From contig CATNEN010000001.1 in assembly GCA_950097015.1 (NCBI GenBank), positions 5,394,001 to 5,458,000 of the forward strand: DNA of 64,000 nt. The letters run 5' to 3'. The stretch comes from Macrostomum hystrix. Its lineage: Eukaryota > Animalia > Platyhelminthes. Under the pieces are notes generated by a model. That model ran no database searches, was not told the origin of the DNA, and saw only the letters and a list, made by a program, of their open reading frames with translations. A program made the translations under genes and the position numbers. Position 1 is the first letter of the stretch. Each line of letters begins with the position of its first letter. Positions 5,101-55,891 of the stretch are shown piece after piece.

Positions 5101-8100
5101 CGAACCCGAATGACCCGGAGCACATTCGTGGCAGGCGGTCTTGCCGTCGCCGTACTTGCCGTCAGGGCACTTGCACAGCCGAGCTCCAGCGAAACGAATA
5201 TCGGCTTGACAGGTTGCGCCTCTGAGACAGTTGTAATCTGTGACGCAATTGGTGCAGGTCAAGGTCATGGCAGTCTGGTCCAGTCTATCGACGGTATAGC
5301 CCGATCTGCACTGGCAGACACCGGATAGGCACTCCAAAGTGGCATTTAATATCTCCATATCGTCTGGCATGATGCCTTTGTTGCAGTCCTGCATGATTTG
5401 TTATTTATAGTCGCTTTTATGTCAACTGCAGAGTTTGAAACACACAACGAATATATTCATAAACGCAAATTGGAAACTAGTTAGAAAGAGAAAAAAATAC
5501 AACGGGTATCAGCATCAGCAAATATTGAAATTTCGGGTATCAATAATGAAGAATCTGGCAGCTTCCTAGTCCATGGACTTCGCCGTTGGGCACAACAGTT
5601 TTTCTATCTTCTACAATCTACAAAATTACACCAGTGGCCTCGCCGTGGAATCGAGTTCAGGAACCTCTACCCTCGCCCGTTTCGCATTCCAAAAACTGAT
5701 CTTTATTAATCTTACCTGCAAAGAACGGCAGGCAATGCTGCACACTCCTAGTCTATTGGCAGCGAAGCCGTCCCTGCAGACGCAAGCATTGCTAACCGGA
5801 TCGCACAGGGCATTCTCTGAGCAGTCGCTAGGCTGACAAGGCCGAGCTTGGCAGCGACCGGCGGCGACGGTCTTCGGAGGCGGGCAGGTGTCACAGACTC
5901 GACTGGCGTTGCAGAACGCAAACTGGCCAGCATCGGCGCAGGTGGCATTGTCGACGCAAATCTCCGGCAGGCAGACGCTGCCGTTTCCGCGGAAGCCCTG
6001 TCGGCAGACGCAAGTGCCAGCGTTGCCATTGTTACCGGGGCGACAGTCGGCGAATCGGCTGCAGCCGGCCTGCTGACGACAGGCGGCGTCGGTCTCGCGG
6101 ATGCATTTGCTGCTGCTGCACTGGCAGCGATGCTGCACACCAGAGCTCGTGGCCTGCTGCATGCAGGCAAAGCCCTCCACGGAACAAGCGGCCTGTCGTC
6201 GATTTGGAAGCAAAAAAATGTTGTAGATATTTTCACACGAGGGGAATCACCAAGATCCCTGAGCTCGATTCCGCGGCGAGGCCACATTCATTTCGGGCGC
6301 AGCTGCGTTGGGAAGGCTTGAAGGGCTTTTCATGCAATTTACGCCCCTGAGGGCCAATCACCAAGGCAAAGTGAGAGTGTACACTCCCTGACGATGAAAA
6401 AGTCAGGGCAGATTAACACACCTGTGTTAGCGTGTGCCTGCATACGGTATCTGTGTACGTGTGTGCTCAGGAGTCAGCGAAATCGGCAGAATGTCCTCCT
6501 CACTGGATCCGGGTTCAATGTCACCAAAGTATGTGCTATCATTGCCCACAGCCCTCCCGAAAATGTTAATAACTGTAAAGCGATGCGAGAATAACAGTCT
6601 CAGTAGCCCGAACCTGGGGCAGCCGGCAATCGTGACGGTCGGCCACGCAGCGCAGTCCGTCGCCGGAGAAGCCGGAGGCGCAGATGCACTTGTTGAGGAG
6701 ACACTCGGAGTTGACGTCGCACAGTGTTGGACCGCAGATAGGTCGGCAGGAACTTTCCGGCTTTTGACGCCGATAGCCTGGAAGGCATTGACAACGAACC
6801 TGACCTTTCGTCTGTCCGGAATCGTCCGTGACGCACACTGCGCCAGTTCCACAGGCGAGGTCATCGCAGGACAGCCATTTTTTAAGATTGCCAACTAGAC
6901 GAGTAATATGAATTCCTTGCGGCTCGTAGAACATGTCGTAGGTGTGCTCCAGCAGCAGCCGGCCAACTCGAGTTTCTATCTCGCAGCTGGGCGTGAACTC
7001 CCAGCTTTCCGAGAATTCAATCCTCAACTCCAAAACGGGTTGGCCCATGATTAGGACAGTCAGGCTGTAGTTTGCCGGGGAAAGCGACTCGACGCGGACT
7101 AGGTCTCTCTGGACTGACGTAAATTCGTATCGAGTTGTTAGCTTGCGACTGTCTACGATAACCAGATCAATTTCTCTGCTCAGAACGTTGCTGATTGTCT
7201 CAGCCTGAAAAAATGGCAGCAAAAATTAAACGGAGCAAAGCAAGCACACAAAACTCAAGAACACGGGCCTACTTATTTTTGCGAGCGCATCTTCTGAAAT
7301 AAGAATCAAGTCGTCTGCTCTTCAGACCGTTGAGACATTCAGGTCTGAATTCTGGCCTAATGTCAGAATTTTGCCATCAGATCGATCAGTGAGCTAATTT
7401 CACACACCACTATACCCACTATACACAAACTTGTCAATCCTTTAAAATTTATTCGGTGGTCAGACCATCCAAATGTGGACACCTTAATGCCAATTTCTCC
7501 CATTTCGCTGATCAAGCCTCGATATTGGCCTAAACTCAACGATTGCTTGTTGAAGGTCCAGCAGCTCTGTCTAGATAAAAGTCGGTGACCACATAAGTTG
7601 GAGATAATGCAGGCTCATTCGGATGCTGATAAATTTTGAAGGCCTGGCAAGGCCGCACTGAGGCGCAGTGCTAGTTTGTGTATAGGGGTGCATGAAATGC
7701 ACTAGCTCTCATGGGAAAAATCTGAACTTCGGCCAGAACCGTTGAATATCTCAATGGTCTGAAAGGCTGGCGACTTGATTGTTATTTCAGAAGATGCGCA
7801 ACAAAAAGTAGGCCCGTGTTCTTGACTTTCGTGTCAGCAATCAGCACAAAATAGGAAAATCCCCCTTTGATACGAGCGTAGTTCTACTGTTAAAGAGGTG
7901 AGAATTATTAACTTACCTGAATACTGGTGTTGGTAGCCTTCAAGAGCACATTATTCCAAATATATTGCTCGATAGTCCAAATAGCGACTATTGAGGCATT
8001 GTCTCTGGCTATCAATCGAACTCTGCGTCGGAAGGTGTCACCCAGAGCGAACAGGTTCTGTGTGGAGTTGTTGGAACTCACGGCGGTGAGCAGGGCTAAG

Positions 8101-16200: not shown

Positions 16201-19200
16201 TTATATATGCTTCAATACTGCTTGATTCTGATTGGATAAGAGAACTCCATTGTCTATAAAAAACACGCTCCTCGAGTCTGATTGGCTATAAGAATTTTAT
16301 TATGTACAAAAATCAAGCTTATCTATCCTTAAAAATTGTTTGATTCTGATTGGCTAAAAGAACCTCCCTTAAAAATAAAAACACGTTACTTGCTTCTCAT
16401 TGGTCAATTGAACTATGTTATCAATAGAAAACACGCTTCTTGAGTCTGATTGGCTAATAATACTTTCTTATTAAAAAAAGACGATCCGGTTGATTCTGAC
16501 TGGCTAAAGGACATCTTATCGATAAAAGACATTTCTCAAGTCTGATTGGCTAAACTAGTATTCAATGAAACGAGCAGGTCGTTACTGATTGGCTGTAAGA
16601 CTTTTATTACATACAAAAATCAAGCTTATCTATCCTTAAACACTGTTTAATTCTGATTGGCTAAAAGAACCTCCCTTAAAAATAAAAACAAGCTACTTGC
16701 TTCTCATTGGTCAATAGAACTTTCTTATCTATAAAACAACATGCAGCTTAATTCTGAATCGATAAAAGTAACTCCAGGCTTATCTAATAAAACACGCTGT
16801 TTGATTCTGATTGGCTAAGGGAGATTCCTTATCTCTGTGGCACGTATCTGGTTACAAAAAAGTCAACAAACCACCTCACCTAGCCAGTATATCGTCATTA
16901 AAAAGCAGGTGAAACGGCCACTCGTGCTTAAACTTTAATCCAACCCGAGACCAAGAATCTGTAATTGGCGATTGCGCGTCCGTACTAGTAGGCTGACTGT
17001 CTTCAAGCCAGATTTCGAATCGTTTAAACGCCGGATTGTCTTCTAATCCGACAGTTCTAGCGGCCCGATTAAAAAATGAGGCGAGCTGTTGGCCCAGCAT
17101 CCGATGCGGCAGACGATCTAGCAGTGGGCCGGCTAAATCTATGAATGCCAGATAGAATTCACCGCGACCCATCAGGTAGAAATCTTTGATCGCTTGCAAT
17201 TGCTGCTCCAGGTTATAATCTTCCATTAGAAGGCGCCACAGCTGCTCAGTAACATGCGAGCGAACCTGAAGTAGAAAATAAAGGACACGGTGGATTGATT
17301 TTAGAATCTACCACTCTACTCTACAGTCTACAGGTTCAAAATCAATACTTTAATGTACCTGTTCAGAATATACTAATCTACTCTACCCCAAAATATAAAA
17401 CAATCTCATTTTCCTACTCAGAGTCTACTACTCCACCGAGCCTTTTTAACATTTACCTTTCTACTCTTCCTGTTTAAAATTATCTATCACTCAACACTAC
17501 CCGTTCAGAATCTATCACTCTACTCTACTCGTTCAGAATCGACAACTCTACTTTACCCTTCAGAATCTACTACCCATACTCTACCTGTTCAGAATCTACC
17601 ATTCCACTCTACCCGTAAGGAATCTACCACTTTACTCAACCAGTTCAGAATCTACCACTCTACTCTACCCGTTCAGCATCTACCACTCTACTCAATCCTA
17701 CTCAGTATCTACCGCTCTACTCAAACCTACTCGGTATCTACCACTCTACTCAAACCTACTCGGTATCTACCAATCTACTCAAACCTACTCGGTATCTACC
17801 AATTTACTCAAATTTTCTCAGCATTTAACACTCTACTCAAACCTACTCAGCAACTATCACTCGACTAAAACCAACTCAGTATCCAGGACTCTGCTCAACC
17901 TACTCATCTCCAATCATCCCTAAAATGCTGCAACTCACATCCGCCACGAATTCTTCCAAAGCCAACAAATCAAACTGTGTAGCGGCAGCTAAACTATCTA
18001 AACGATGCTGGAACAGTCGCTCCAGGTTGTTAAGAAAAGCGGTCGATCTAGTCTCGTTGAGTCCGAAGCATCTAACGGCTTCGCCAACGAATAGAATCCG
18101 CTGAGCCAAGGTCAACGGCAGATAGGCTGGCAACAATGTAAATTGCAATTCAGCTTTCTGAGCACCCGTGCTCACAATGATACTGCTTGTGTCTGCGGCG
18201 ACTGCAGAACTTCCAGGTGCTACAGGAGCAGTGGATGCAGTAGCAGCAGCAGCTGATGCTGTCGGCTTCTTCTGTTGATCAACAAGGCGAACGAAGAATT
18301 CGGAATATGGATCGTCTAGCTGGCCCTAGTTCGGTTGGGGAAAGGATAATAGATCCTCATATTTTTTTAATCATTTTTCTTAATAAAAATTATCTAGGCA
18401 TTTGAAATCCCAACCTACAAACTGGTATCCCACAATCTTTACTTTAAACTGGAATCCCATAATCCTAACTTTAAACTGGTATCCCAAAATCCCAACTTTA
18501 AACTGGAATCCCATAATCCTAACTTTAAACTGGTATCCCAAAATCCCAACTTTAAACTGGTATCCCATAATCCCAACTTTAAACTGGTATCCCGAAATCC
18601 CAACTTTAAACTGGAATCCCATAATCCTAACTTTAAACTGGTATCCCATAATCCCAACTTTAAACTGGTATCCCGAAATCCCAACTTTAAACTGATATCC
18701 CATAATCCCAACCTACAAACTGATATCCCATAATCTTAACTTCAAACTGGTATCCCATAATCCTAACTTTAAACTGGTATCCCATATTCCCAACCTTCAA
18801 ACTGGTATCCCATAATTCTAACTTCAAACTGGTATCCCGAAATCCCAACTTCAAACTGGCATCCCATAATCCCAACCTACAAACTGATATCCCAAAATCC
18901 CAACCTTCAAACTGGTATCCCATAGTCCCAACCTACAAACTGGAATCCCATAATCCCAACTTTAAACTGGCATCCCATAATCCCAACCTACAAACTGATA
19001 TCCCAAAATCCCAACCTTCAAACTGGTATCCCATAATCCCAACCTACAAACTGGAAGCCCATAATCCCAACTTTAAACTGGTATCCCATAATCCCAACCT
19101 ACAAACTGGAATCCCAAAATCCCAACTTTAAACTGGCATCCCATAATCCCAACCTACAAACTGATATCCCAAAATCCCAACCTTCAAACTGGTATCCCAA

Positions 19201-22200
19201 AATCCCAACCTTCAAACTGTATCCCAAAATCCCAACCTATAAACTGGTATCCCATAATACTAACTTCAAACTGGCATCCCATAAGCCCAACTTCAAACTG
19301 GCATCCCATAATCCCAACTATATCCCATAGTTCTAAATCCTAACCAATAAAACAGATACTATAATTATAACTGACAGCCAACAAAGTGATTTCTAAATGT
19401 AGAGAGTTGTAAAATGTGCTTTTTGCTTAACGCGCTACTTAAAGTAATGCCATAAGGAACTCTTAGCTACAACATTTAATCTATTTTTAGGAATGAGTCA
19501 TACGCTATTTTTAGAAACAGTCATGTGACATGAAACCGGAGAACCGGTTCTTGACAGCTGTGTTTGCTTGAATTCCAAATATGGTAAAGCAAACAATTAT
19601 GACTCATCGGGTTCTGCGTCTGTGTTTGCACTGTATTCCAAATATGGTAAAAACTCACAATCATGACTCACTAAACAAATATGTGTGACCTAAGTAAACA
19701 CCCGGTAGTAGAACCGGTTTTTCCCCAAGGTTTTGCTATAAATACAAGCGAAAATCCGAGCTAAAAATTCAGACTCGGAGCGGTCCACCGGACTTCAAAA
19801 CACCTTACGAAGAAGAGGACTCATCTCTGAGGGAAAGACAAGTGGTAAGCGCTTTATTAGACAGAGTTACTTATTGCTAGCAATAGTTGTTGAATTGAAC
19901 TAAGTTTACGAGAGCCACATATCGTCGATAAATTTGAGAAAGGCCTCCTTGTTTCCTAGGATACATTCCTAGAGGATTATTGATTGATTTGATTTGAGTT
20001 ATCCGTTATCTTTCGGAGGTAACGAAGAAGACGCCCTTCAGGAGGACCTATCAGAGATATACAAGAGAGATTTCAATTGTTCACTAGGGCGCACGTTTCT
20101 ATTGTGAATTCCGAGCTCGAGGAAACCGAAAAGTAATCTGATTCGCTCTCGTCATTTATTGGCCAACAGACAAACTCAAGCAGCTGCCAAGAAGACAAAG
20201 AAGACAAGACTACAAAGACTCAAGAAACGTAGACTCGAAACCTCACGGTCGACCAGAACAAGAAGAAGGAGAACTTACCGGACTACAAGGATCCAGAAGA
20301 CTATAAACTACTTAAGGAAGAAGAAGCAATCGCAGTAAGTGTCACGTGACTGTTATAAATTCCTAGGCAATTGTTCCCCATTGTCTAGAAGTGGGAGTTT
20401 CGTGTGTCTGATCAACACGCAAAACTCTTCAACTGGTGATCTCGCCCAGGCCCTGCAATCAAGCCCAGGCCGAGATACAAAACATTTTTTGCGGTACCCC
20501 TTTCGAATTGTTTTAACATAAAAAAAGGAAAAAAAATTTTTTGCAACTTATTAATTTTGCTTTTGATTTAAAATAATCCACCGTTTCATAAAAATTTTGT
20601 TGCGTCATCCCTCTGAAAAATTTTGCTGTCCCTACCGGATATTGTTTGCACATAAGCCACACGCGTCACTTCGCTCTATTGTTTGCACACCTGGGAATCG
20701 CGCGACTGAACTCACCGGCTCACATTTCAATAACCCATTTTCAGCGTTGAAAGCGGCATACGTTCCCTGCTTTGTATAAATTTTTCTCCCTTGTCCTGAG
20801 TAAATAATTCCTCTGTGTAAACCATTTTCATTTGCTGATACACACGCACACGCACACACACACACACTTTTTATTCACACTAAATCTTGTCAGAGAAGTC
20901 AATCTGGACGAACCCTTGAACATCGATCCAGAACTTGAATTATTTCCGTTCCCAGTTGCGAATATGGCACGAAGAAACTATCAGGTCCATCGTGACATTA
21001 AGGAAACGGTCGGAATGTATACAATGGATAAAGATTTCAACACATTCATTGATCACTTTGATTTGGTCTCACGCGAATATGGATTACAGAATGCAGAGAA
21101 AGCACTCCTACTACCTCCACTGTTACAAGGAACAGCTCGAGAAATCTATGGAAAATTGACAGCTGCAGTACAACAAGATTATCAAGCTCTAGTTACCCAA
21201 CTGAGAGCACAATTCGCACGATGTGGAACAAACAGATCGGTACTCCTTCATAAACTTCATAATCGAAAAATGAGTCCCACTGAGAGTTTTCTCACCTTTG
21301 TTGATGACATCCGTAAGATCGTCAAAGCATTACATCAGCCTCCACCATTGGATCAAGGAGCTCAACCTATAGGACCTGCCGAATCAGCTGCACGAGAAAG
21401 ACAACGTCTTGAAGACCGGGAACAAAGCTTAATACTTCATGTGATTAATAACGCACAGCCTACTTTGCGAGATAGACTGCTGAGAGAAACTATTAACACA
21501 GAGGAACAACTGCTCCGTTGTGGAATGCAATGGGAAGCTAGCGCACCTCTTATGACTACTCATAATAGTGACACGACACAACTAGCAGAACAATTAAGCA
21601 AACTCATGCAGCAACACCAAACTTCTGCTATTGTACCACAACAGCAGAGATATTCCTATCCACAACCACAACAGAGATACTTGCACACATCAACTTGTTA
21701 CACCTGTGGAAGGATCGGTCATTATGCTAGAGACTGCAGATCACGTGGCAACCCACGTTCATACAATGACAATAGACAGACCAATTGGACTCATCCTCCA
21801 AGACAGCCTTCAAACCGTAATTGGACAAATAGTCGACAACAAGATAGCAGACCATCTAATGCCATCGTACCTTATCGTCAACAAAGAAATCCTCCACCTC
21901 CAAGACAACCAACGCAAGTCCGTCGACAATACACTCAAGCTATTGAGCCTGAATACACTCAAACTATTGAACCAAAGTTCAAGATTGAAGATCTTATGCC
22001 AGACTTTTCCGTCAATGTTCTTGATGAACTTGAGAAACAAAAGAAGGAGCAAGAAATCAATGACCTTCATCTGGACAACGATGGTGCAGCCTATATTACT
22101 ATAATCGAAAGCGACCATTCGAAAGAGCCGCCCATGCCACAAAAGGAAACAGAGGATACAGAAGAAAACAATTTTTACTACAACAATGAGTCAACACAGG

Positions 22201-25200
22201 AAATACAGAACGACAACACAAGCAACGACAGCAGCTGCATAATGGGTTCATTGTTTGAAGAATTATCGATTCCCTCGCCAAGAGAAAGTGTTGCCTTCAA
22301 CACCTGTCAACACATTGAACGAAAACAAGTACAACAACAAATCAAAGGATTATTCAAAATTCCAACGATGAGTGATCTTTCAAAAATTCTGCAAAACAAA
22401 GAAGGCATAGATGAATTGTCCACATCCACAGAAAGGAATAATGAGGACCACAGTGCGAAAAATTCACACAACACGTCTGAAGAAAACATCAGCATGCTAC
22501 AAATTTTAGTCGATGACATCGACTTGACAGAGACACCGCCTTCGACACCCAAGTACAAACCTGATCCCGAATACGAAAACATAACCCCTGTCAATTCATC
22601 TGAAGGACAGAATGGACACGATAAAGCAGTGAATACCGAATCATACTACTCGAAGCACGATAGATCTTCTCAGACTAAAAGTGACTACAATACGTCGATG
22701 GAAAATGATGATGATCATATCTATGATGAACCAACAACATGGATCGACATGAGAACGGATACTACAAGTACCGTACTGCAAACTCTCAATACACCATTAA
22801 CATTCAATATGAAACAACCAACCTGGTATAACCAACAAACCAGACCATCAGGATGCAACAACCCATGGCACTTTTCTATGCGCCTTACTCCACCAATTGG
22901 AGAGACAGAAGACCAACGATATTCAATAAACACCAATAAACCGACACCACCAACCAAAGTGAAGAAAAAGAAACGACACATACTGATAAGATGGTTGTTT
23001 TCAGCCATCGTGATGTTGCTTCTCCCGACAGTTGTACCATCTTCAGTGCCCATGATTTGCCCTACTGATGCCAACATCCAACCAGTCATCTACAAAATAC
23101 CAACGGAAATCAAGTGCAGTTACTTTAAAACTAATCAAACAAAACCTATTCCATTAACGATCGATGTCTACAAAGCAAACACAAAGAAACATAGACAATA
23201 TGGTATTATCTGTTTCCGAGATAAACATGAACTAGAAAAGGTTTGGTACATCCAATGGAATCGCATCCGATTCTGGCAAACAGCACTGCCTGTCACACAA
23301 GAAGAATGCCTCCAGTGGAACCAAACATTATTTTCTAAAGATGGAGAACTTCATGCCGATGAGAAAATTGGAAACTCTCAACTCTTCAGGACCAAGAACA
23401 GTGCGAACGGTAGATATGTCCATTGGAACGAATACATATGGCCACGTTACACCACGACAAACAGTTACTTAATCCGGAAAGTCTTGTTTTACCACAATCC
23501 ATTTGAAAACATGGAATCTCTACAATTATCAATGGAAGATTGCAAGTACAATACAGGGTTCTGCGAAACAGCAAAACTCTGGAACGAAGCAGTATGGCAA
23601 GTACCGCTGGCTCCAACATACCATCAAAATTACAGATGGCAAATTGAACATCGACACAGCCCATACTATGAGATTACAGAATACCAACGACAGTACTTCG
23701 TTGCATGGAAAGTTGAACCGAATATTGATTGTAAATTCCAGAAGTACCATACAATAAAAGGAAGTCTACTGTCAAATACCTTCCTTGCGAGTACGTCGGA
23801 TTTTGCCCTAACTTTTCCAAAAAAAGCCAAGTATCTCCAAATTAACTGCAAGGAGAACTCTAAAAAACTTCTAGTGTCTGAACAAGAGATACCGCTCGAA
23901 TTACGTGATATGGATGAGGATACCTTTATGAGACTGGTCAATGGTACTTATTCAACAAGAACCAACACAGTTCGGAAAAGGAGAGAACTACAAAGACCAT
24001 CAATGGTTTCTGCACGACTACTAGCGGCAAAACTCGCAGCAATGGAACATAACCTACATAAAGAACTAAACTACTTGCACAAATCACTGATCCAACTGAC
24101 TTGTAGAATGCACGAAACTGCACTTAACTATGCACGACAAAACTATTATGTCAATCCAACGTCTACATTCAGAAAAATCACAGGGATTCAAGATGCTTTA
24201 GCTATCCCCATCTCTGGCCATCTGTTGATTTACAAATGTGTGCCACTGCATCATTTTAATATCTTGCCATCAAACACATCAACTACGTGCTACGATAAAC
24301 CCAGAATCGAAGCTTACTACAATGGGAAACGAATTCAAGGATTTCTAGATACTGTGCACAATATAATTGTTGGAACTGCAATCCCGAGACCCTGCACTGA
24401 CGCAGTCAACTATTTCAACATTAATAATAAACTACACAAGGTCTCAACAACTGGGCACATTACAAACATCACTGGTATGCAAGCTATTATCGACGAAACA
24501 TACGAACTATCGGACCTACAGCTCAAGATAAATAAGACCACCTATAAACCATTTGGTGACATCAAACTTGACGAAATCACACCAGGATGGACAATTAATG
24601 ATTTTCTTCAAGTTTTTATCGCCCAACGACAGATGATGAACAAGCTCTTTACCCAACACAACCAACAGGACAAAGAACAATCCTTTTCGACAGGATTCAT
24701 CATACATAACGCAATAGGATCCTTTTGGTCGAATAGCTTTCTCGATTTACTCCAAGGAAAAGGAAGTTACTATCAGGGATTCATCTTCTCCAGTGCATGC
24801 ATTGTATGGATTCACCTTGCACTAATGATCTTTATCACAGCAGTACGATGCGTAGCACGAGCCTATCCAGCAAAACAACGGATTTTCCAAATTGACAAAC
24901 AACAAGAAACTACTATATCCACCGAAAAAATTGAAGAAACTCTACTACAAGATCAAAGAAAACAATTATTGCCAACAACACCAAACACACCTAAACAACA
25001 TGATCTATGGGTGAACAAAAATCCAAACACTTTTCTTCTACTTACATTCACTATTGCCTCTTAATTACAATTTTGTCTACAATTACCACTAACTAATACG
25101 TTCGTAGCTGGTAACTATTGCTACTGCTCGGTGATGGTATTCACTCTCACGCTTTAGGAACAAGTTTTAAATCGAATTATCCACTGTTTCACTATGTTTT

Positions 25201-27039
25201 TGTAAATCTATAAAATTCTACCACACAACTGTTTCAACAAATACGTACATATAAGTATATTCTCCTAAATTTTTATGCCAAATTTTAATTCTCAACAATA
25301 AATTCGGGACGAATTTTTTCGTAAAAAAGGGAGATATTGTAGAGAGTTGTAAAATGTGCTTTTTGCTTAACGCGCTACTTAAAGTAATGCCATAAGGAAC
25401 TCTTAGCTACAACATTTAATCTATTTTTAGGAATGAGTCATACGCTATTTTTAGAAACAGTCATGTGACATGAAACCGGAGAACCGGTTCTTGACAGCTG
25501 TGTTTGCTTGAATTCCAAATATGGTAAAGCAAACAATTATGACTCATCGGGTTCTGCGTCTGTGTTTGCACTGTATTCCAAATATGGTAAAAACTCACAA
25601 TCATGACTCACTAAACAAATATGTGTGACCTAAGTAAACACCCGGTAGTAGAACCGGTTTTTCCCCAAGGTTTTGCTATAAATACAAGCGAAAATCCGAG
25701 CTAAAAATTCAGACTCGGAGCGGTCCACCGGACTTCAAAACACCTTACGAAGAAGAGGACTCATCTCTGAGGGAAAGACAAGTGGTAAGCGCTTTATTAG
25801 ACAGAGTTACTTATTGCTAGCAATAGTTGTTGAATTGAACTAAGTTTACGAGAGCCACATATCGTCGATAAATTTGAGAAAGGCCTCCTTGTTTCCTAGG
25901 ATACATTCCTAGAGGATTATTGATTGATTTGATTTGAGTTATCCGTTATCTTTCGGAGGTAACGAAGAAGACGCCCTTCAGGAGGACCTATCAGAGATAT
26001 ACAAGAGAGATTTCAATTGTTCACTAGGGCGCACGTTTCTATTGTGAATTCCGAGCTCGAGGAAACCGAAAAGTAATCTGATTCGCTCTCGTCATTTATT
26101 GGCCAACAGACAAACTCAAGCAGCTGCCAAGAAGACAAAGAAGACAAGACTACAAAGACTCAAGAAACGTAGACTCGAAACCTCACGGTCGACCAGAACA
26201 AGAAGAAGGAGAACTTACCGGACTACAAGGATCCAGAAGACTATAAACTACTTAAGGAAGAAGAAGCAATCGCAGTAAGTGTCACGTGACTGTTATAAAT
26301 TCCTAGGCAATTGTTCCCCATTGTCTAGAAGTGGGAGTTTCGTGTGTCTGATCAACACGCAAAACTCTTCACTAAAGTTCCGAATGCCCACTACCTAAAA
26401 GTGATAGTTTTTAAGCTACAAAATGAAATTCCCTGTTTCTTTATCCTAAAAGAATTATCCAGGTGATAATAACATTGCATCACTTACCTGAAGCATCCAA
26501 TCCCCAATCTGTCTAAACGCTAATCGATGACAATTCTGCAGTAAGGTATCAAACACCACCTGGGCTGTTGGCAGGCCGCAAGGCATACGGTGTACAATCT
26601 TCTCCATCAGTTGAGTACCTCTGGCGCCGCTTCTATCAATCGTGTCCAAAAGTTCGGCCAAGGCTGGGAATAATAAATGGAATTCTTCTAATCGGCATTG
26701 GACATAGTTCAACGATAGATAAGGATCGGCAATTAGTTCGGCTTCGAGATCAATCAGGCGACTCCGATAAGATTCTAGACAATTGTCTAATGCGTCACTA
26801 AATACTTTGGCGTACAAACCGCAGTTGGGCTTATCAGATTCCAAATAATTTGATCGATCGATTATGAATTCTTGAAATCTTATATAGTAAGCTCCTAGCT
26901 GGCATAGTCTATTGATTAGTGGCACCTCGGACGGACTGACAAATGGTAGATTATCAATTAGACGTAGACTACCCGATTGGTTCTGTTGGATTACAGAACC
27001 GGGACAGCCGTAGAGAGCTAGCAAAAGTTCATGTAGCAT
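13252..27039 (-). CDS. TUBGCP4: Gamma-tubulin complex component 4
   Basis: Exons 27039-26488, 18325-17939, 17265-16880, 16020-15744, 13620-13252, phase-consistent. Motifs MLHELLLALYGCPG, LDDPYSEFFV, IKDFYLMGRGE, DNLVYYLQVDV, QLLLRLDFNRFF. Confidence 0.93.
13750..14480. repeat. 21-bp minisatellite (ATAATTCATGCTTCCCCCTCG)
   Basis: Tandem array in TUBGCP4 intron 4. Confidence 0.95.
15074..15712. repeat. 19-21-bp minisatellite (GGGTGAGATTCGATCAGT)
   Basis: Tandem array in TUBGCP4 intron 4. Confidence 0.95.
17300..17900. repeat. Degenerate ~28-bp minisatellite (CAGAATCTACCACTCTACTCTACCCGTT)
   Basis: Fills TUBGCP4 intron 2. Confidence 0.85.
18405..19330. repeat. 27-bp minisatellite (AAACTGGTATCCCATAATCCCAACTTT)
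   Basis: Tandem array in TUBGCP4 intron 1, next to the LTR element. Confidence 0.95.
19398..20431 (+). repeat. 5' LTR
   Basis: Begins TGTAGAGAG, ends CTCTTCA; direct repeat of 25338-26371 with no differences seen by eye; TATAAATA at 19737-19744. Confidence 0.97.
20434..20450 (+). other. Putative tRNA primer-binding site
   Basis: Starts with TGG 2 nt after the 5' LTR (TGGTGATCTCGCCCAGG). The primer tRNA is not identified; it loosely resembles a tRNA-Trp PBS. Confidence 0.7.
20964..25064 (+). CDS. Gag-Env polyprotein: capsid-like region, CCHC knuckle, low-complexity linker, gB-like class III glycoprotein
   Basis: First ATG at 20964 in ORF 20832-25064. Retrotransposon capsid-like N-terminus; CYTCGRIGHYARDC (CX2CX4HX4C, ~21696-21737); basic stretch plus hydrophobic internal signal (~22961-23045); RKRR at 23973-23984; gB-like C..NPT..G..CVP and CY.KP..G.L..PC patterns; TM at ~24777-24845. 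Confidence 0.85.
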   Translation: MARRNYQVHRDIKETVGMYTMDKDFNTFIDHFDLVSREYGLQNAEKALLLPPLLQGTAREIYGKLTAAVQQDYQALVTQLRAQFARCGTNRSVLLHKLHNRKMSPTESFLTFVDDIRKIVKALHQPPPLDQGAQPIGPAESAARERQRLEDREQSLILHVINNAQPTLRDRLLRETINTEEQLLRCGMQWEASAPLMTTHNSDTTQLAEQLSKLMQQHQTSAIVPQQQRYSYPQPQQRYLHTSTCYTCGRIGHYARDCRSRGNPRSYNDNRQTNWTHPPRQPSNRNWTNSRQQDSRPSNAIVPYRQQRNPPPPRQPTQVRRQYTQAIEPEYTQTIEPKFKIEDLMPDFSVNVLDELEKQKKEQEINDLHLDNDGAAYITIIESDHSKEPPMPQKETEDTEENNFYYNNESTQEIQNDNTSNDSSCIMGSLFEELSIPSPRESVAFNTCQHIERKQVQQQIKGLFKIPTMSDLSKILQNKEGIDELSTSTERNNEDHSAKNSHNTSEENISMLQILVDDIDLTETPPSTPKYKPDPEYENITPVNSSEGQNGHDKAVNTESYYSKHDRSSQTKSDYNTSMENDDDHIYDEPTTWIDMRTDTTSTVLQTLNTPLTFNMKQPTWYNQQTRPSGCNNPWHFSMRLTPPIGETEDQRYSINTNKPTPPTKVKKKKRHILIRWLFSAIVMLLLPTVVPSSVPMICPTDANIQPVIYKIPTEIKCSYFKTNQTKPIPLTIDVYKANTKKHRQYGIICFRDKHELEKVWYIQWNRIRFWQTALPVTQEECLQWNQTLFSKDGELHADEKIGNSQLFRTKNSANGRYVHWNEYIWPRYTTTNSYLIRKVLFYHNPFENMESLQLSMEDCKYNTGFCETAKLWNEAVWQVPLAPTYHQNYRWQIEHRHSPYYEITEYQRQYFVAWKVEPNIDCKFQKYHTIKGSLLSNTFLASTSDFALTFPKKAKYLQINCKENSKKLLVSEQEIPLELRDMDEDTFMRLVNGTYSTRTNTVRKRRELQRPSMVSARLLAAKLAAMEHNLHKELNYLHKSLIQLTCRMHETALNYARQNYYVNPTSTFRKITGIQDALAIPISGHLLIYKCVPLHHFNILPSNTSTTCYDKPRIEAYYNGKRIQGFLDTVHNIIVGTAIPRPCTDAVNYFNINNKLHKVSTTGHITNITGMQAIIDETYELSDLQLKINKTTYKPFGDIKLDEITPGWTINDFLQVFIAQRQMMNKLFTQHNQQDKEQSFSTGFIIHNAIGSFWSNSFLDLLQGKGSYYQGFIFSSACIVWIHLALMIFITAVRCVARAYPAKQRIFQIDKQQETTISTEKIEETLLQDQRKQLLPTTPNTPKQHDLWVNKNPNTFLLLTFTIAS
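25323..25334 (+). other. Polypurine tract
   Basis: AAAAAAGGGAGA, 3 nt upstream of the 3' LTR. Confidence 0.8.
25338..26371 (+). repeat. 3' LTR
   Basis: Copy of 19398-20431 at offset 5940; followed by TSD CTAAA. Confidence 0.97.
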
Positions 27040-29267: not shown

Positions 29268-30404
29268 TCAAGCGACGTTGCCACCAAAAGGCACACTGTG
29301 CAGCACAACAAACGGCACATCAGGACCAGATCGATAAATAAATTCAACCGATCTAGCCAAGAACTCAACCCTACCAGGTTGATCAGCCAGCCAGGCATTT
29401 GAGAATTTGCGTTTCAAATCTTCGGCCGTAGAGTTTGAATTGCACTGCGCGACAGTCAGGTGGGGTCGATAGCCGCCACCGCCATGCGGCTGTTGCAAAT
29501 CCACGCAGTCAGGAAACACTTCGGCTAATATCGATTGAAGCTTCATCAGATTCGGACAGCCAGTTGACGAACATTCTGTTGAACTAGACGATTCCGGTTC
29601 CGTTGGGTCTAGCCAAACTGTGGCACTCTTACCGCCGTGATTGAAATGTCCGAATGTGGCTAGGCTAACTCGAAACGGAGCCAGATTAGATAATTTGGGA
29701 GCCAGCTTAGCCGCGGCTGAGTCCATCTGGGAGGGCTCATAGAATGGATAAGTCAGATTGATGTGGGGCATCCAACGCTGATACTGACGATCGTGTTGTC
29801 TGCGAGATTGAACAATTATATACACAGTTTCATGAGTTTGATTGCTTGAAAAGTTTGTTAAAATATATCACGAGAAAAGAAAAGTGAAAATTATTGGAAA
29901 ATACGGGCAGTAAAAATAAAGAAACAGAGAAGGAATTGGATGAGAAAATGAGCATAATGAGTGAAGGGGAGAAGGCAAAGATGAAGGGGAGAAGGCAAAG
30001 ATGAAGGAGAGAAGGCAAATTTGAAGGAGAGAAGGCAAAGATGAAGGAGAGAAGGCAAATATGAAGGAAAGAAGGCAAAGATGAAGAAGAGAAGGCAAAT
30101 ATGAAGAAGAGAAGGAGAAGATGAAGGGGAGAAGGCAAAGATGAAGGGGAGAAGGCAAATATGAAGGAGAAGAGAAGGGAAAGATGAAGGGGAGAAGGCA
30201 AAGATGAAGGAGAGAAGGGAGAGGGAAGAGGAGAGGGGGGAGAGGGGGAGAAGGAAGAGGAAGGATAAGGGAGATGTAGGAATCCCAGAAAAAGGCAATA
30301 GTTGCTTTCGCTCACTTTCTAATATCCTGAATTGCCTGATAAATCAGAGATTCAGTTGGTGGCATCAGAATAATAGCCGACTGATGCGTTTTAGCACAAC
30401 TCAT
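29268..30404 (-). CDS. 2H-phosphoesterase / 2'-5' RNA ligase-like protein (LENG9-like)
   Basis: Exons 30404-30316 and 29799-29268, phase-consistent. Motifs HQSAIILMPP, RWMPHINLTYPF, FGHFNH, YRPHLTVAQ (two 2H-type motifs). Confidence 0.8.
29960..30270. repeat. Purine-rich 20-bp minisatellite (GAAGGCAAAGATGAAGGAGA)
   Basis: Fills the LENG9-like intron. Confidence 0.9.
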
Positions 30405-34808: not shown

Positions 34809-36997
34809 TTATTCGGCATCATCAACATCATTGACAACAGACGCCTTTGAAGAAGCCGGCGAAGGTGTTGCTGAGTATTGAACTAAGCCGCAGTTAAATA
34901 TGTCGACATCTTTATTAGCCGATTCATCATTCGATGATTCTTCGAAAATCGGCGACTTCACTGATACTGAAGCAGTCAAACACATCGTCGAAGTTGAACA
35001 TGTTGGCGTCGCTGAAGCATCAACATTCGAGAACGTCACTGCGACATCAACCTCTGAGGACGTCGCTGAAGCATCAACCTTCGAGGACGTTGCTGCGGCA
35101 TCGACCATCGAGGACGTCGCTGCAACATCAACCTCCGAGGACGTCGCTAAAGCATTAAACTTCGAGGACGTCGCTGCAAAATCAACCTTCGAGGACGTCG
35201 ATGAAGTATCAAACTTCGAGGACATCGGTAAAGCATCAACCTTCGAGAATGTCGCTGAAGTATCAACCTTTGAGGACGTCGACGAAGCATCAACCTTCGA
35301 GTACGTGGCTGAAGCATCAACTTTCGAGGATGTCGCTGAAACATCAACCTTCGAGGACGTCGATGAAGTATCAAACTTCGAGGACATCGGTAAAGCATCA
35401 ACCTTCGAGAATGTCGCTGAAGTATCAACCTTTGAGGACGTCGACGAAGCATCAACCTTCGAGTACGTGGCTGAAGCATCAACTTTCGAGGATGTCGCTG
35501 AAACATCAACCTTCGAGGACGTCGATGAAGTATCAAACTTCGAGGACATCGGTAAAGCATCAACCTTCGAGAATGTCGCTGAAACATCAACCTTCCAGGA
35601 TGTCGCCGACGTTGAAGACATCGATGACATCGCCGAAGATGTCGACGAGCCACGCCCGCCGACAACAATGCCCATTAATCGTCGATTCTGACCGGTTCGT
35701 CGTCGCAGATCGTCCGGCTCCGCAGGTCGGCCCATTTTAAACGGCGAACCATCGTCATTGAGATGTCGATCTACTCCGGTATTTTTTCTCTTAGCCGGCC
35801 TGACAGCATCCAACGGTGCCACGCTATCCATATGCAACAGCTGAGCTCCGATCTCATCAGCTGATGACTCCGGCAGTAGCTCCAGAGATCCGCCAGTCAG
35901 GGAGTGGCGAGCTAAGAAATCTGAGTCGCTAGCTGACTCGGCAGCTAGTCGTTTGCGTTCGTCGCGCAGGCCTGCTCGAATTAGGCGATTCAGCTGGATG
36001 TCGTTGGCGCCTCGAGCGGCCGTGTCGCCGGCCAGAGCGGCTAAACGTGGGGCAACATCGGCGCCGCGCTCCTCGTCCGACTTGCCGTGCTCCAATTTGT
36101 ACATGGCGTCGGTTGCTAAGCGACGCTTAGTCTCTCCGTCCTCGGGAGCAATCTGGCCGTTCTCGGTTGGATCCCAGCGTTGCTCTTTGCGGCGGGCGCC
36201 GGAAATGATGACGTAATCAAAATTTCCTGGGTCTGTACGGATCAGATACCTGCGAGAAGCGAAAGATATGATCCGAATCTAGACAATATTTTAATTAACA
36301 AACAGGCCAACTGACCCCTCTACATAAGATCAACTGATAATCTCTACGCGAGGTCAACTGACCCCTCTACGCGAGGTCAACTGACCCCTCTACGCGAGGT
36401 CAACTGACCCCTCTACGCGAGGACAACTGACCCCATAAAACAATATAAACTGATCTATCTAAACGACGTCAACTGACCCATCTACAGGAGGTCAACTGAC
36501 CCCTTTACATGAAGTCAACTAACAAACTTTACTCAACGCAAACTGACCTCTTTAAACTAGGTCAACTGACCCCTCTAAACGCGAGATAAACTGATCTATC
36601 TACACCACGTCAACTGACCACTCTACAGGAGGTCAACTGACCCCCTACTCGAGATGATACAAACACTAATAAACAAAATGAATCGAATCGATAAAATCTA
36701 AACAAACCTCTGATCGCACAGATGGCACTTCATATTAAACTCGTAGATTGGCGTACTAAAGTACATTCCGACTTTCTTCTTCTCGGCATTGTAACGAACT
36801 CCCATAGCAACGTGCCGACCGCAGCCGCCGCACCAGATATTGTACGGCATCTCAAATCTAATAACAATGATACCTTGGCCAATTTTCTTAGCTCGCTCTC
36901 GCAGCGCGTGCGTGCCATGATAGGCGTCAAGGCTGCGATGCAATCTAGGATCAAAATCTGGCGGATAGTACTTGTTTGTGCCTTTGCGTTCTCCCAT
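34809..36997 (-). CDS. YJU2B: CWC16-family splicing factor CCDC130/YJU2B with a repetitive C-terminal extension
   Basis: Exons 36997-36708 and 36249-34809. Motifs MGERKGTNKYYPPDFDP, IRFEMPYNIWCGGC, MGVRYNAEKKKVG, IRTDPGNFDY, DAMYKLEH. Confidence 0.92.
36305..36650. repeat. 23-bp minisatellite (AGGTCAACTGACCCCTCTACGCG)
   Basis: Fills the CCDC130 intron. Confidence 0.9.
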
Positions 36998-37910: not shown

Positions 37911-40061
37911 TCATTGCCAGCCATCTAGCTTGCTCAGCAAATCGTCGCCATCGATAGCCGGATCAACTTCTTCGTCGCTAGCGTAGCCAACCTCCTTGAG
38001 AGATTCGGCCTGTTTCAGACAATCTGGCAGAATGGAATCGCAGACCTGATCCCAATCGCGTTCAACGACCTAAAGTTGAAATTACTGTTCACTTAAGAGT
38101 AAATGAACCTTAGAAACTTAGGGCTTATTACCAAATAATCTAGGAAATAATGAAGAATGCTGGAGCTCAGATAACTAAATCAAGCGATTCATTAACGAAT
38201 CTACAGATTCATTACCGAATCTAGAGATGCATTACTGAATCTAGAGATTCATTACCGAATCTAAAGATTCATTACCGAATCTAAAGATTCATTACCGAAT
38301 CTAAAGATTTATTACTGAATTTAGATATTCATTACCAAATCTAGAGATTCATTACCAAATCTAGAGATTCATTACCGAATCTAGAGATTCATTACCGAAT
38401 TTGGAGATTCATTACCGAATCTAGAGATTCATTACCGAATCTAGAGATTCATTACCGAATCTAGAGATTCATTACCGAATCTAGAGATTCATTACCGAAT
38501 CTAGAGATTCATTACCGAATCTAGAGAAGCATTACCGAATCTAGAGATTCACTACTGAATCTAGAGATTCATTACCGAATCTAGATATGTAATACTGAAT
38601 CTAGAGATTCACTACCGAATCTATAGATCTAACACTGAATCTAGAGATTCATTACCGAATCTAGAGATGTATTACAGAATCGAGATATGTATTGCCAAAT
38701 CTAGAGATTCATTATCAAATATCAAGATTTATTATCTAATCTAGAAAATTATTACTGAATCCAGAAATTTTTAATCAAACGTAGAGATTCATTAAATAAA
38801 TTACGAACTTATTAACGAATCCCAGAACTCATAATGATTGTATTTTGTAAATTATTTTTTTCCAGTCAAAAGAGAATCGCCGCATATTTTGTTAACCAAG
38901 CAAGATTTTTCAATAGACCAATCAGCTTCTAACCTGTTTATCGCAGAAGTCTTCCACAACAGACAATGCCCTATTAATCTTCTTAGCAAATTGGCCAACA
39001 GACAGTTCCCAGTGACGCTGGAGAGCTCTCAGCTCCCACAGAGCATAGCCTGAGGCGGCAGACTCAGCCTGTGCTAGGCTAAGAGACATACTGAATTCTG
39101 CTGAAGTATTGCTAGATTCTTGAGCCTGGTCATCCTGCCGATGCACCAGATACTGGCAGTTCTTGTGTCTGCGCAGTAAATTAAGGATTAAACCAATTAG
39201 CATTGGCTGGCAATGACAAGGCGCCATTAGGCAAAGAGTGCTCAATCGTTTAGCAAAAGCTGCCACCCTAGCCGTAGGCAGATTAGTAGCGCTTAGCATC
39301 AAATCCAATTGGCGATAGAATCTACCCCGATGCGGAGATAGCAAGCCGCGCAAGGACACTAATTCGTACAGTCTGTCAAACAGTGGACCATAATCTAGAG
39401 AGTAATTAAACACCAGATGAAATACGCAGGGTGTAGCAGCCAGTGCGACATCTAAGTTGGCATCTTCAAATGATGTCATAACAAAATCGGCTAGCTGCAT
39501 AGCGTTAGTCAATTGGCCAAGAATTTTATCGTTCAGCAGAACCAATAGCTTGCATTGATGACGAGTCTTGTTAGCGCCAGTCGATGGCAGTGGACAATCT
39601 AGATAACGGCGCCATAGCTTTCCATAGGTCTTTCTTAGCTGACTAATAGCCATTAGTTTCTTCTGCATTTGGCTATAAAATTCTGATTTCTTAGACCAGA
39701 ATTTGTGCGCCCGTGAGTCAGTCTCTGGTTCAGTCTTTTGCAGAAGCAGACGATCTTGTCTAGTTAAACGTTTAGGAAAATTGAACGCAGACAAAATGCG
39801 TTCAACGTTAGAATGATAGCTAGCATAGCTATGATCGGAACTTTTATTGGGTAATTGACGCAGCTCAGAATCAATACACTGCATGGAAACTAGAGCCACA
39901 TCTGAAAAGACTAGATGAGATTGCAAATCGGCTAGCAAAGCAATCTGCAGCTTCTCATCCTTACAGACCACTAGGCGAGATATAGCTTCTTCAAAGTCTA
40001 CTCGCCTCAGAACAGTCTGTTTTAGCTGTTGCCAGTCTAGCAGAGTATTTTGTTCTGTCAT
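37911..40061 (-). CDS. NOC4L: Nucleolar complex protein 4 homolog (CBF/Mak21 domain)
   Basis: Exons 40061-38934 and 38069-37911. Motifs LADFVMTSF, LDLMLSATNLPTARVAAFAKRLS, NLLRRHKNC, LWELRALQRHW. Confidence 0.85.
38185..38830. repeat. 20-bp minisatellite (CTAGAGATTCATTACCGAAT)
   Basis: Fills the NOC4L intron. Confidence 0.95.
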
Positions 40062-43000
40062 TGAAGTTGTCTGAAATCGACATATTTTCATCAAATTGAT
40101 AGTTAGGTGTCAAGACAGTGGAGCAATAATAGAAATGCCTTTGATTCTCAGACAACTTTAAAAGCACAATCTCAAAATTTACAATATATCAAGAGAGAAC
40201 ATTGAAAGGATATAGCAACTGGTCTGAATTAATTAATTATGATAGAGTTATTCAAATAGTTCCAAATATCAAAACAAGGCTAGCTATTAAAACCATTAGA
40301 ATAAATGAAAATATCTTCTGATCTCCAGAAATTTATCCTTACTTGAAGACTTTTTGTAGACTTGACCTTTTAGTAACAGAATACAATAAATATATGGCAG
40401 TAATTAAAGTTGCTGTCAGGTCGTTTCTATGACTATGCTTTTTTTTTATGTTCCAAGTGGGGTTTTTACTGCCTGATAATTAATTTATGGAACCTAATTT
40501 ACAGATAGACAAAGAAGAAACAATAAACAATTAGGACTTTATCTACCTAATTGTGGAGTGAGGAATGTAGTTCTAGCTAAAATACCTATCACTAAAATCA
40601 CTAAAATACAAGGTTTAAAGTTTGTGTAGTTATTGAATTAAAAATATCTAGATTAGATTTTTTAATTCCTTAGAAAATTATAGGAATCTTAGATCAGATT
40701 AGGATTTCCTTCTAAAATGTCTTCTAAATGCTTTGCATGCACTTTGATAAAAGGTGTAACTTGAAATCAATAGTAATTATGCACTGCCCAAGTAAGCTGT
40801 ATTATGATGTTTTGATTTTTAAATGTATTGATTTATACTAGTACTTGAAAATTGAAAAAAGAATCATAGACATAGGAAGTCCTGACTTTTTTCTTGCTTA
40901 GTGTTTCACTTTACATGATAGTATAGTTAAAATTTCAATCTATTTAGAGGTTTTCTGATGTTTAAAATAATATCACAATTTTAGTTAAACTTTTAAAGAA
41001 TGTTATAATAGTATTTCCTGAATAAGAATTATTTTTTACCAACTATGCCTTTATTCTTTTTTTATTGATAATTGGGTAAGGAAAGGCAGTATTAAATCAT
41101 TTAATCAAATTAATCAAACAAGCACAGAGATGATTTTGCATTCCTTAAATGTTAAAGCTTAAGCTTGGATAAGTTTAAGCTAAGGTGAAGAAGGATTTTT
41201 AAAGAAGCTAGGGTCAGGGTTAGGGTTTGCAAAAGGCTAGGCCTATACGACTTTCTTTCAGATCAAAGACTTATATTTCATTAACAAAGATATGATAATT
41301 GACAAAAGTGCTCAAAAAATCCTAAATCCTTGCAAGTCCCTTGTTTTTGAATTGGAGGAGGAAACAGAGAACTTTATAGATTTTTGGTATATATAGATAA
41401 GAATTGAATCTCAATTGTCACATTTTATTATTTAGACCATCTTTCTCTATGTATAGGCCTTATATACCCATCTGCTAGCCTGGTACCTAATGGACACCAG
41501 GTGCACAAACTTCTTGCCCACTGCCAGTGAAGATCCTACTGCAGGCAAGATCACTAGATCCCCCTGAGTGGCACTGCCTTGTTTGCAAGCCATTGGTCAC
41601 CAGAGGTTAGCAAAACAGGTGGTAAGTCTGCTTCCTCTGCTTCTTTACTATATCTGCTGGTCAGATACACCTTGCAGCAAAGTCAAGTAAGTCAAAGGCC
41701 CTATATATAGCCACTAAATCTTAAAGTTGAACATTAGTTGAAATTTAGTTCAACTTTCAATTTGGTCTTTTTGTCTGCCACAATCTCATCTGCTGTTAAA
41801 TTGACTTTGGGATGGATGGTGACCCCATTCCTAGTTTTTTACATCAAGGGTCAAGCATTACTTTTATTCTTTGTTTTACAAATTTAACAAAATTACATTA
41901 TCTTAACTGTTGAATTTTTTAAAGCGAAAGAAACCTAACTAAATACAGCTGCAGCTTGCAGGTTCTGACTTAAAAAGGTCAAGATCACCAAAAAAGTATG
42001 AAAATCCACATGTCTAACTTCTTCTCTAAGATGAGATTCAATTCAAGTAAATATTTCACAATTTTGTTAGGGCCTAGCTTGAACTGAACTGAATGCTGAC
42101 TAAATAGAATTTATGCATTAAAATTTTTGAAAGCTATTTAAAATAACGATGCCTCTTAAGTTCTAAGTTACTCAATGTGAAACAAATTTATTGAAGGCTA
42201 ATAACAAGGGTAGTCTGTTAATAACAAACAATTACTTAATTTGGGCTATTTGGCTTAATTTTTAAAACAACAAACACCATGAGAATGCTAGAATAAATTA
42301 TGCTAAAGTAAACTACGCACAAACTCTAGATCGACTTCTGCCCTGCAGTAACCATTGTGCTGTACGTATTCCCCACATCAGTAAAATCACCACTGCACCA
42401 GCTTGCACTGACCGTACGTTAAAATATTTTTTGAATTTGTGTTCACAATGTATCCGTTTGGTTTGCAAGAAACTTCGTTTTTATAACAAAATTTAACCAC
42501 ATTATATTTAGATTATTGGTTACGAGTGCAAAACTTAAAGAATAAGACACTAAAAAATTACAATTAAAGATTTCTGACATGCGCGAACCAAAACACGTGA
42601 CGATTTAAAGTTTTTAGGTTTTGTTATTTCGAGGCCAAAGAGTTTTAAAGTTTACTAAAAAGCGTAAAACCACCTATAATGTGTCCAAACTCGAATCAAA
42701 AGGTTGTAAATAAACATTTTTTCTGTTTCGCAGTGTCGCTACCTGTAAGCTCTCTGGCTGAAATTATAAGAGGCAATACCGGACCTTTGCCGCTTGTGCC
42801 TTTGCTAGCTATCGATAACAGAGCTAGTTTGACAAGATTATGCTATCAGACTATATCTTAGATACCACACCTAAACCTAAAGGGGGTGCCTTCTGGCCTC
42901 TGAGAACTTTTCGCTCTCGTCGAACCATTCCCGTGCTTGCTGGGAACAGAGAACAGATGAGCAGATTGAAAAAGTGATAAAGATCGGTGGAAAACAACCT

Positions 43001-50365: not shown

Positions 50366-51259
50366 TATTCGTTAAGGCCAGCTAAAATAACGCTGAATTG
50401 AATAAAATGACTCAAATTTTATGCCTTCTGAGTATGTTTGCTTCAAAAACATCATCTTTTAGTTCGCTTTCATTAGCTTTTATTAGCGAGGTAGTCTTTC
50501 ATTTAAAGACTGACTACCTCATCCTTAACTAATACATCTCGTGATTTCTTCAAAGCATGTTAATCTACCTGATTTTCTTTACAGTACATCGACGTGAAAT
50601 GTTGCTTGAGTCCAAAAAGATTAAGTATTTAATCGTTCCTAAAACTTTGATATTCACTTCATATTCATATGCCATTCTAATATATCTATCTATCTGTTAT
50701 GTGGCAATATACAAGAAATATAGTTTTTCTTGTTTGAATATCAGTAAAAATTACCAAAATTTAAAGAAAAAAAGTAAAAATAACACATAGAGAATTAGTA
50801 AGCATCGATTTTGAGCATATACTCGTAATCAAATTCAGAAGCAGGGACCGTGTTTTTCTAACTAATATTAAAGAGAATATATACTTGATTTAACAAAACC
50901 TGCAGTGTTTAACCTGGATGTGGACATTACCAGATTTTCCTTCCCATTGGGATTAAACCACTTAACTAAATTTGGTTCACAGCAAAGATCGACAGGTAAG
51001 CCCATGCAGTGCAAACGGCATGCTTCAGAAAGGTAATTTAGTTGCAATCAGCAGCCGAAATTGATATTTTTCGCGTCAATGCACAGATAGAATTATTTTA
51101 CACAAAGCGACACATCCAAAACAATGACATTCTTATTAAATTCTACTCAACCGGATGATTCAAACACAGAGGAGTTCTTTTCGTATAAATAAGGTCGCTT
51201 TACAAAGATCCACTGCACCGATATTCGAGCCTCATCGAGAAGAAGAAATCTCATTAACG

Positions 51260-55525: not shown

Positions 55526-55891
55526 ATAATAGTAATAATAATTACAAGAGGGCTGCGGGCAATGGTACATCGTTTTAGTGACATTAGACCCGCAGCCAGC
55601 GAGGAGGCAATTCTGCCCATTTCACTGACTCCTGAGCACACACGCACACAGATACTGTACGCAGGCATATGCTCACACAGGTGTGTACATCTGTCCTGAC
55701 ATTCTTATTGTCAGGCAGTGTAAATTTCACTGTGCCTTGGAGGTTGGCCAATCAAGGGCGTAAATTGCACGACAAGCCCCCAAGCCTTCTCTCCGCGGCT
55801 GCGCCCCAAATAAATGTGGCCTCTCCGTGGAATCGAACTTAGGGACCATGGTGCGAGATGCAAACGCGATAACCGCTCTGCCACCGACCCC
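55526..55891 (-). mobile_element. Full-length tRNA-derived SINE (family A)
   Basis: On - strand: head GGGGGTCGGTGGCAGAGCGGTT (A box) and GTTCGATTCC (B box); (TTA)n-like tail; 15-bp TSD CATAAGGTGGATTTA at 55511-55525 and 55892-55906. Confidence 0.9.

Follow-up and report, generated by a model that had tools for sequence, protein, structure and literature searches.

Structure of the element and its insertion site

The window, by which we mean the whole 64,000-nt stretch of Macrostomum hystrix DNA analysed here, contains an LTR element with one long reading frame for a Gag-like and an envelope-like protein (Table 1). Every Ty3/gypsy boundary mark that was tested for is in place: LTRs, primer-binding site, polypurine tract and target duplication. 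The two LTRs show no difference over 1034 nt, which together with the intact target duplication indicates that the insertion is very young. The 5' LTR contains TATAAA at 19737, donor-like splice sites at 19845 and 20335, and an acceptor-like site at 20168-20169; a scan of the LTR for a canonical heat-shock element found none. The element lies antisense to a host gene, in the intron that follows the exon listed in Table 1 and about 115 nt from the donor of that exon (26487). Pfam supports assignment of the gene to the gamma-tubulin complex family, and we take it to be GCP4-like.

Elsewhere in the window, host coding frames (2115-4522, 29268-29867, 34809-36278, 38922-40109, 51140-52731 and 56920-57585) matched LDL-receptor/EGF repeats, the 2'-5' RNA ligase family, Saf4/Yju2, CBF/Mak21, a rhodopsin-family GPCR and an ANF-receptor domain, and many introns are packed with tandem repeats with units of 14-33 nt. 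A pair of arms in inverted orientation, each about 225 nt long (55523-55749 and 60515-60740), lie about 5 kb apart and resemble each other at 85-89%; with related pieces at 4639-4706 and 6380-6528, they possibly represent a DNA transposon or MITE family.

Table 1 Features of the element and the flanking host gene (window coordinates)
Feature	Position	Strand	Remark
Left target-site duplication, 5 bp	19393..19397	+	copy of 26372-26376
5' LTR, 1034 nt, ends TG...CA	19398..20431	+	identical to 3' LTR
Primer-binding site, 12 nt	20434..20445	+	begins 2 nt past 5' LTR
Single Gag-Env ORF, 1366 aa	20964..25064	+	without protease or RT motif
Gag: capsid-like retrotransposon region and one CCHC zinc knuckle	20964..21737	+	
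Linker, Q/R/P-rich then acidic, low-complexity	21738..22961	+	
Basic patch and internal hydrophobic segment, aa 667-693	22962..23042	+	predicted internal signal or signal-anchor
Class III gB-type ectodomain (predicted)	23043..24779	+	
C-terminal transmembrane segment, aa 1273-1291	24780..24836	+	by hydropathy
Cytosolic tail (predicted)	24837..24983	+	up to end of similarity to relatives
Putative deletion joint	24975..24992	+	from end of P0010 similarity and contig exit/entry points
Polypurine tract	25323..25334	+	
3' LTR, 1034 nt	25338..26371	+	
Right target-site duplication	26372..26376	+	
Host gamma-tubulin complex component exon	26488..27039	-	Pfam PF17681, PF04130
Later host exons	within frames 17900-18325 and 16876-17307	-	

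A single reading frame joins Gag and Env

The 700-residue envelope stretch singled out by the first-pass annotation is the C-terminal half (the last 700 codons) of a 1366-aa ORF, and the probability of a stop-free frame of 1366 codons by chance is about 1e-36. In its Gag part, a CCHC knuckle lies at aa 245-258, with a Pfam zf-CCHC match at aa 244-259, and the neighbours in the protein atlas are Retrotrans_gag-like; identity is 31% to the Gag of the M. lignano protein P0012 and 51% to that of a second relative, P0001. Over 406 codons the linker is free of stops in the ORF frame, whereas the two alternative frames contain 36 and 12. It is poorly conserved (the distance from knuckle to Env is 437 aa in the window and 240 aa in P0001) and contains several Met codons. 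The proposal that Env had been fused in frame to Gag is borne out by the knuckle and Gag-like neighbours in the same ORF and by the stop-free linker.

The Env motifs quoted in that annotation are all present, ordered and in one frame: KKKKRH at aa 667, a furin-like RKRR at aa 1004-1007 (nt 23973-23984), LTC at aa 1045, NPTSTFRKITG at aa 1064, GHLLIYKCVP at aa 1085, CYDKPRIEAYYNG at aa 1109, IQGFL at aa 1124 and PRPC at aa 1141. The N-glycosylation sequons and two hydrophobic segments that it had listed were also found, whereas the start that it gave, 22961, is one base off frame, KKKKRH beginning at nt 22962. The Env part has six N-sequons and 14 cysteines, and the 12 that lie in the ectodomain are each conserved in 96-100% of the alignment rows that cover them (52-73 rows with a residue at the position). 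Exactly two Kyte-Doolittle peaks occur in the whole ORF, at aa 673-691 and aa 1273-1291; the net charge is +7 before the first hydrophobic segment and +4 behind the second, which on hydropathy places basic flanks on the sides expected for a type I topology. A long helix is predicted at aa 1017-1063, and aromatic residues at predicted hairpin turns (about aa 761-765 and 821-826) are, by analogy, candidate fusion-loop tips.

Related proteins in Macrostomum and other genomes

A three-sequence profile gave 89 matches among 1.84 billion representatives. The nearest named proteins are Env-Pol and Gag-Env-Pol polyproteins of Macrostomum lignano: P0010 (PAA64473.1), 59% identical to the window Env over 656 aa that take in the whole ectodomain and the transmembrane segment, P0002 (ALD16272.1; 57%) and P0012 (PAA86625.1; 28%). 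All three have the signal region and transmembrane segment of the window Env, and P0012, with a similar Gag as well, holds Gag, Env and Pol in one 2852-aa chain. Whereas the window ORF stops, P0010, P0002 and P0012 continue in frame past Env into protease, RT, RNase H and integrase, ordered PR-RT-RH-IN and with no Pao peptidase (PF05380). A further homologue search returned P0001 only, which is likewise a Gag-Env fusion, has a shorter linker and breaks off within the ectodomain; metagenome contigs, viral contigs and phages were also searched and gave no relatives. A quick tree of 48 of the 91 rows, those covering at least 500 profile positions, grouped the window Env with P0010 (support 99), followed by P0012 and P0013 (support 100). 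Taken by themselves, the relatives of the element would point to a Macrostomum-like flatworm as the probable host.

Of the 42 relatives that have 150 aa or more upstream, 39 show a hydrophobic segment directly before the ectodomain, compared with 7% of 2720 random windows; the predicted in-frame internal signal segment is a trait of the family. The stop-free linker is common to many relatives, and the furin-like motif occurs in only 34 of 54. Behind Env, a Pfam aspartic protease is found in the same protein in 23 of 73 scanned relatives, a set in which 25 had been picked for length. A crude regular expression found no protease motif in 26 of 54 relatives, all of which stop at most 250 aa past the ectodomain; many of these are fragments, and some Gag-Env relatives may end at a genuine stop.

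Several single proteins differ in what surrounds Env. In P0021, Env is preceded within the one chain by a NADAR domain (PF08719), and P0022 and P0096 have an aspartic protease upstream, P0022 with protease domains on both sides. Between the Env transmembrane segment and the protease, P0010 contains LYP, PTAP and PPNY (aa 703-721), and P0012 contains PSAP and YPTL (aa 1564-1593), which we take to be late-domain-like, such short motifs also arising by chance. They are absent from the window ORF, and those of P0010 lie just past the position of the joint described below.

The envelope is predicted to have a gB-type class III fold

The window Env matched Pfam PF24664 with an E-value of 1.4e-6, at 27.0 bits against a 27-bit cut-off. 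Searches of the PDB with the single sequence and with the three-sequence profile gave no significant match; success came only with an 80-sequence profile, built from the window ectodomain and 79 relatives (P0010 and 78 of the 89 profile matches), for which herpesvirus gB made up 46 of 48 matches at E ≤ 10 (best 1.3e-16). Because none of 73 relatives scanned for the gB Pfam family reached its cut-off, the match between profile and gB is, as far as tested, not due to true gB sequences within the profile. When aligned to gammaherpesvirus gB by HMMER, the family profile matches over the helix and the NP, CVP and C..G.L motifs and more weakly at the N-terminal cysteine pair; this alignment contains the motif correspondence with herpesvirus gB that the first-pass annotation had put forward.

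An AlphaFold monomer model of Env had a pLDDT of 83.8 and a pTM of 0.63, and a single-sequence fold prediction had a pLDDT of 30. The annotation had suggested submitting a model of the ectodomain to Foldseek, with gB expected, and all 32 PDB matches listed were gB (best E 6.7e-21, TM about 0.44). With VIA-align, HSV-1 gB gave Z 12.4 and an rmsd of 7.0 over 410 aligned residues, and the ranking was headed by six gB structures, followed by Chandipura G (rhabdovirus) and Bourbon GP (thogotovirus). No class I or II fusogen was among the structure matches listed. These comparisons with gB are limited by global TM-scores below 0.5, high rmsd and about 10-15% identity; long proteins with hinges that share 12% identity can be expected to give TM-scores below 0.5. 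Against viral structure models, the leading matches were rhabdovirus-like, nyavirus (rank 2), entomopoxvirus and herpesvirus gB, and chuvirus-like models first appeared at rank 22 of the 50 listed. A feature search of the atlas leaned towards class III glycoproteins with low recognition and is taken as a lead only.

The Pfam, profile and predicted-structure results support a class III, gB-type fold for Env, with predicted PH-type domains, a long central helix and a beta-rich domain IV. The original label of a 'herpes-gB/chuvirus-type class III' fusogen is retained in its gB-type class III part, while 'chuvirus-type' is too specific. Domain order, the long central helix and the NP..CVP..C motifs are common to Env, herpesvirus gB and the fusion glycoproteins of Monjiviricetes, and the Env model is postfusion-like. 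Env differs from herpesvirus gB in its low identity, in lacking a gH/gL partner and in a clade-specific, aromatic-rich insertion. This Trp/Tyr-rich insertion of about 45 aa (window 23568-23702, aa 869-913) lies in the predicted fusion domain, has a lower pLDDT and is restricted to the small clade of the window Env, in 4-5 of 91 rows.

The element lacks pol

Protease, RT and integrase were sought in the element: neither D[ST]G[AS] nor YxDD occurs in the ORF, and tblastn gave no match to the Pol of the relatives. Only 273 nt separate the stop codon from the 3' LTR, and tblastn found no Pol remnant there. This absence of a Pol match makes the copy a derivative of the GAG-ENV-POL errantivirus kind and not an intact member of it.

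Similarity to P0010 stops at aa 1343. Four of the eight listed sequencing runs were aligned to the window, and the results given here are among the contigs listed, beyond which lay 863 further pieces. A contig of run X1 exits the window sequence at 24983 into 413 unlike letters, at a depth of 422 compared with 418 over the Env body, and a contig of run X2 ends at 24974. From run X7, a contig of a diverged relative has 859 unlike letters, enters at 24975 and then reaches the 3' LTR. Since contigs of other runs leave or enter at the joint, copies of the family in those runs carry additional sequence there, and since the relatives go on into protease where the window ORF stops, the copy is most likely a deletion derivative. 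We infer that the missing piece is pol, from relatives that are at most 59% identical. The last 26 or so residues of the ORF probably lie beyond the joint and are not a native Env tail; of the C-terminal transmembrane segment and tail described at first, the segment stands at aa 1273-1291 and the tail would be shorter by that much. To judge from the sequence, Gag and a membrane-bound Env could still be produced from this copy, which has no protease, RT or integrase. Just past the joint, a hydrophobic ORF of 29 codons in another frame (25007-25096) may be due to chance or may be a remnant of a 3' accessory ORF.

None of the listed contigs bridges the joint, and those of other runs exit there at full family depth, as would also be seen if pol had been dropped by misassembly of a repeat, from an insertion that is in truth full length. 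Both LTRs and the matching target duplications are assembled, however, with the host gene continuing on both sides, and the exit and entry points appear to share about 9 nt, which a template jump at short homology would produce (a rough bound, the X7 contig being diverged). We regard an assembly error as improbable.

The short form could instead stand for a non-autonomous lineage with multiple copies, its frame maintained by selection, which would contribute Gag and Env to mixed particles and borrow Pol in trans. All 1366 codons of the ORF are open and the two LTRs match fully, yet 23 listed ORF sites differ from the form in the other runs; given the identical LTRs, these differences must be older than this insertion. 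Also in favour of this reading, synonymous changes account for 7 of 12 differences in Gag and the ectodomain and for 2 of 11 in the linker and tail, but the overall 9 of 23 is not above neutral (p 0.05-0.27 depending on the model; best-supported 40 of 266 rows). The lack of a bridging contig among those listed also counts against such a lineage, and a young deletion from an intact parent explains the open frame equally well. A selected short form is on balance unlikely.

An intact ORF without pol inside a host gene might also suggest a domesticated Gag-Env gene, syncytin-like or acting as a restriction factor, but with identical LTRs and an intact target duplication the insertion is so young that we give domestication scarcely any weight. 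With good probability, the copy is a recent insertion of a Ty3/gypsy-type LTR element that belongs to the GAG-ENV-POL kind already published; its envelope is predicted to be class III and gB-type, and an internal deletion has likely removed pol, so that the copy would need a complete relative for its mobility.

Proposed topology and processing of the polyprotein

The family polyprotein would span the ER membrane twice. Gag would be made in the cytosol, the basic and hydrophobic segment would thread the ectodomain into the lumen, and the second transmembrane segment would bring the tail and Pol back to the cytosol. Host signal peptidase would probably cut behind the first segment and furin would cut at RKRR, while the cut signal would keep Gag anchored until the element protease or signal-peptide peptidase freed it; the element protease would release Pol from the Env tail. 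Such an anchor could keep a capsid without an N-terminal glycine at the Env-bearing membrane.

Release of Env from Gag by signal peptidase, as the first-pass annotation had proposed, is plausible from the predicted segments. P0001 and P0010 have clear candidate cleavage sites, and the window offers two weaker, proline-rich ones; across the family, the -3/-1 rule does not discriminate, as 63% of random windows also pass it. Hepatitis C core needs a second cut, by signal-peptide peptidase (SPP), according to the available text of PMC5402940. The proposed tethered Gag is likened to this core protein, which is retained at the membrane after the signal cut until the SPP cut. By this analogy the need for a viral protease would be dispensed with at most for Env release, as a signal-peptidase cut would leave Gag tethered to the membrane. 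A search of the literature outside subscription papers found no test of signal-peptidase processing in gB-carrying elements, and the term 'signal peptidase' does not occur in the available part of PMC13524379. It is also conceivable, though we think it unlikely, that the element belongs to a satellite lineage of a flatworm errantivirus, a lineage with Gag and Env only and no pol, which would spread on borrowed Pol and supply capsid and fusogen itself, its Gag being held at the membrane by the cleaved C-terminal signal as in hepatitis C core, in place of a matrix domain.

In the main rival account of Env processing, Env has a separate message, a spliced subgenomic RNA that carries a start of its own, and the Gag fusion matters mainly for reaching Pol; this account bears on expression alone and does not conflict with the deletion. 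In its favour, donor-like sites are present in the LTR, the linker offers its Met codons, and contigs of runs X3 and X7, from two studies, skip 19845-20169 in the LTR with GT..AG ends and stop at 20334, right before GTAAGT. Read depth over the LTR far exceeds that of the element interior. A contig of run X3 also leaves at the host gene donor, so that X3 behaves like RNA, and together these observations give hints of spliced LTR-borne leaders. Against a spliced env message, none of the 15 joints listed, out of 28, leads into the region before the signal, the loose ends of the LTR contigs match nothing in 18900-26900, the runs carry no RNA record, and many relatives share the stop-free linker. 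We consider it doubtful, and signal-peptidase release from the polyprotein is the reading that we prefer.

Comparison with known elements

GAG-ENV-POL Ty3/gypsy elements with an HSV/gB-type ENV are described for Platyhelminthes, Nematoda and Bryozoa in the text available of Chary & Hayashi (eLife 2026, PMC13524379). As far as that text goes, these elements have the gag-env order and a gB-type Env flanked by signal or transmembrane segments, as in the window, and do not always keep the furin site; the survey kept only elements with all three ORFs, and the entry mechanism of gB-carrying errantiviruses is stated there to be unknown. The cysteine spacing in its nematode C2 domain I-II rows resembles, by eye, that of the window Env. 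One of its entries, Platyhelminthes_Rhabditophora_Mlig_errantivirus_2, is a 16-copy M. lignano element, compared here by layout and primer-binding site (PMC13524379). The 12-nt site in the window is the reverse complement of the listed one, and thus the same primer site, with the same 2-nt spacing, whereas the LTR is about 864 nt in that element and 1034 nt in the window, where the copy lacks pol. The layout and the gB-type Env are not new, having been published, Macrostomum included; both this and the absence of pol had been missed by the first-pass annotation.

Certain nematode ERVs reportedly have one continuous gag-env-pro-pol ORF with a Nyamiviridae-like Env. These non-canonical elements place env before pol (Sacco et al. 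2022, PMID 35550022, as cited in the available text of PMC13524379); env and pol likewise stand in flipped order in the window family, but their hosts are nematodes and their pol is complete, unlike that of the window copy.

Captured fusogens are also reported in Bel/Pao elements, namely Tas (gB-like), the mosquito elements with a chuvirus-like env, and Atlas (class II), in the accessible portions of PMC9094657 and PMC13524379. Tas has a gB-like env, and, in the same portions, the Bel/Pao Env lies within one polyprotein, as in the window family. In Atlas Env is C-terminal to Pol, whereas the relatives of the window element are Ty3/gypsy, with Env between Gag and protease. A Bel/Pao env-bearing element was ruled against for the window, env lying directly behind Gag and the nearest relatives having no Peptidase_A17 (PF05380). 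A single Pao-type protein (P0095) was among the 89 profile matches.

As an element class, this copy adds little, and its value is practical. With Gag and Env uninterrupted in one young ORF, the copy lends itself to the study of how a capsid separates from a class III fusogen made in the same chain, and likewise of whether a gB-type Env fuses cells without gH/gL.
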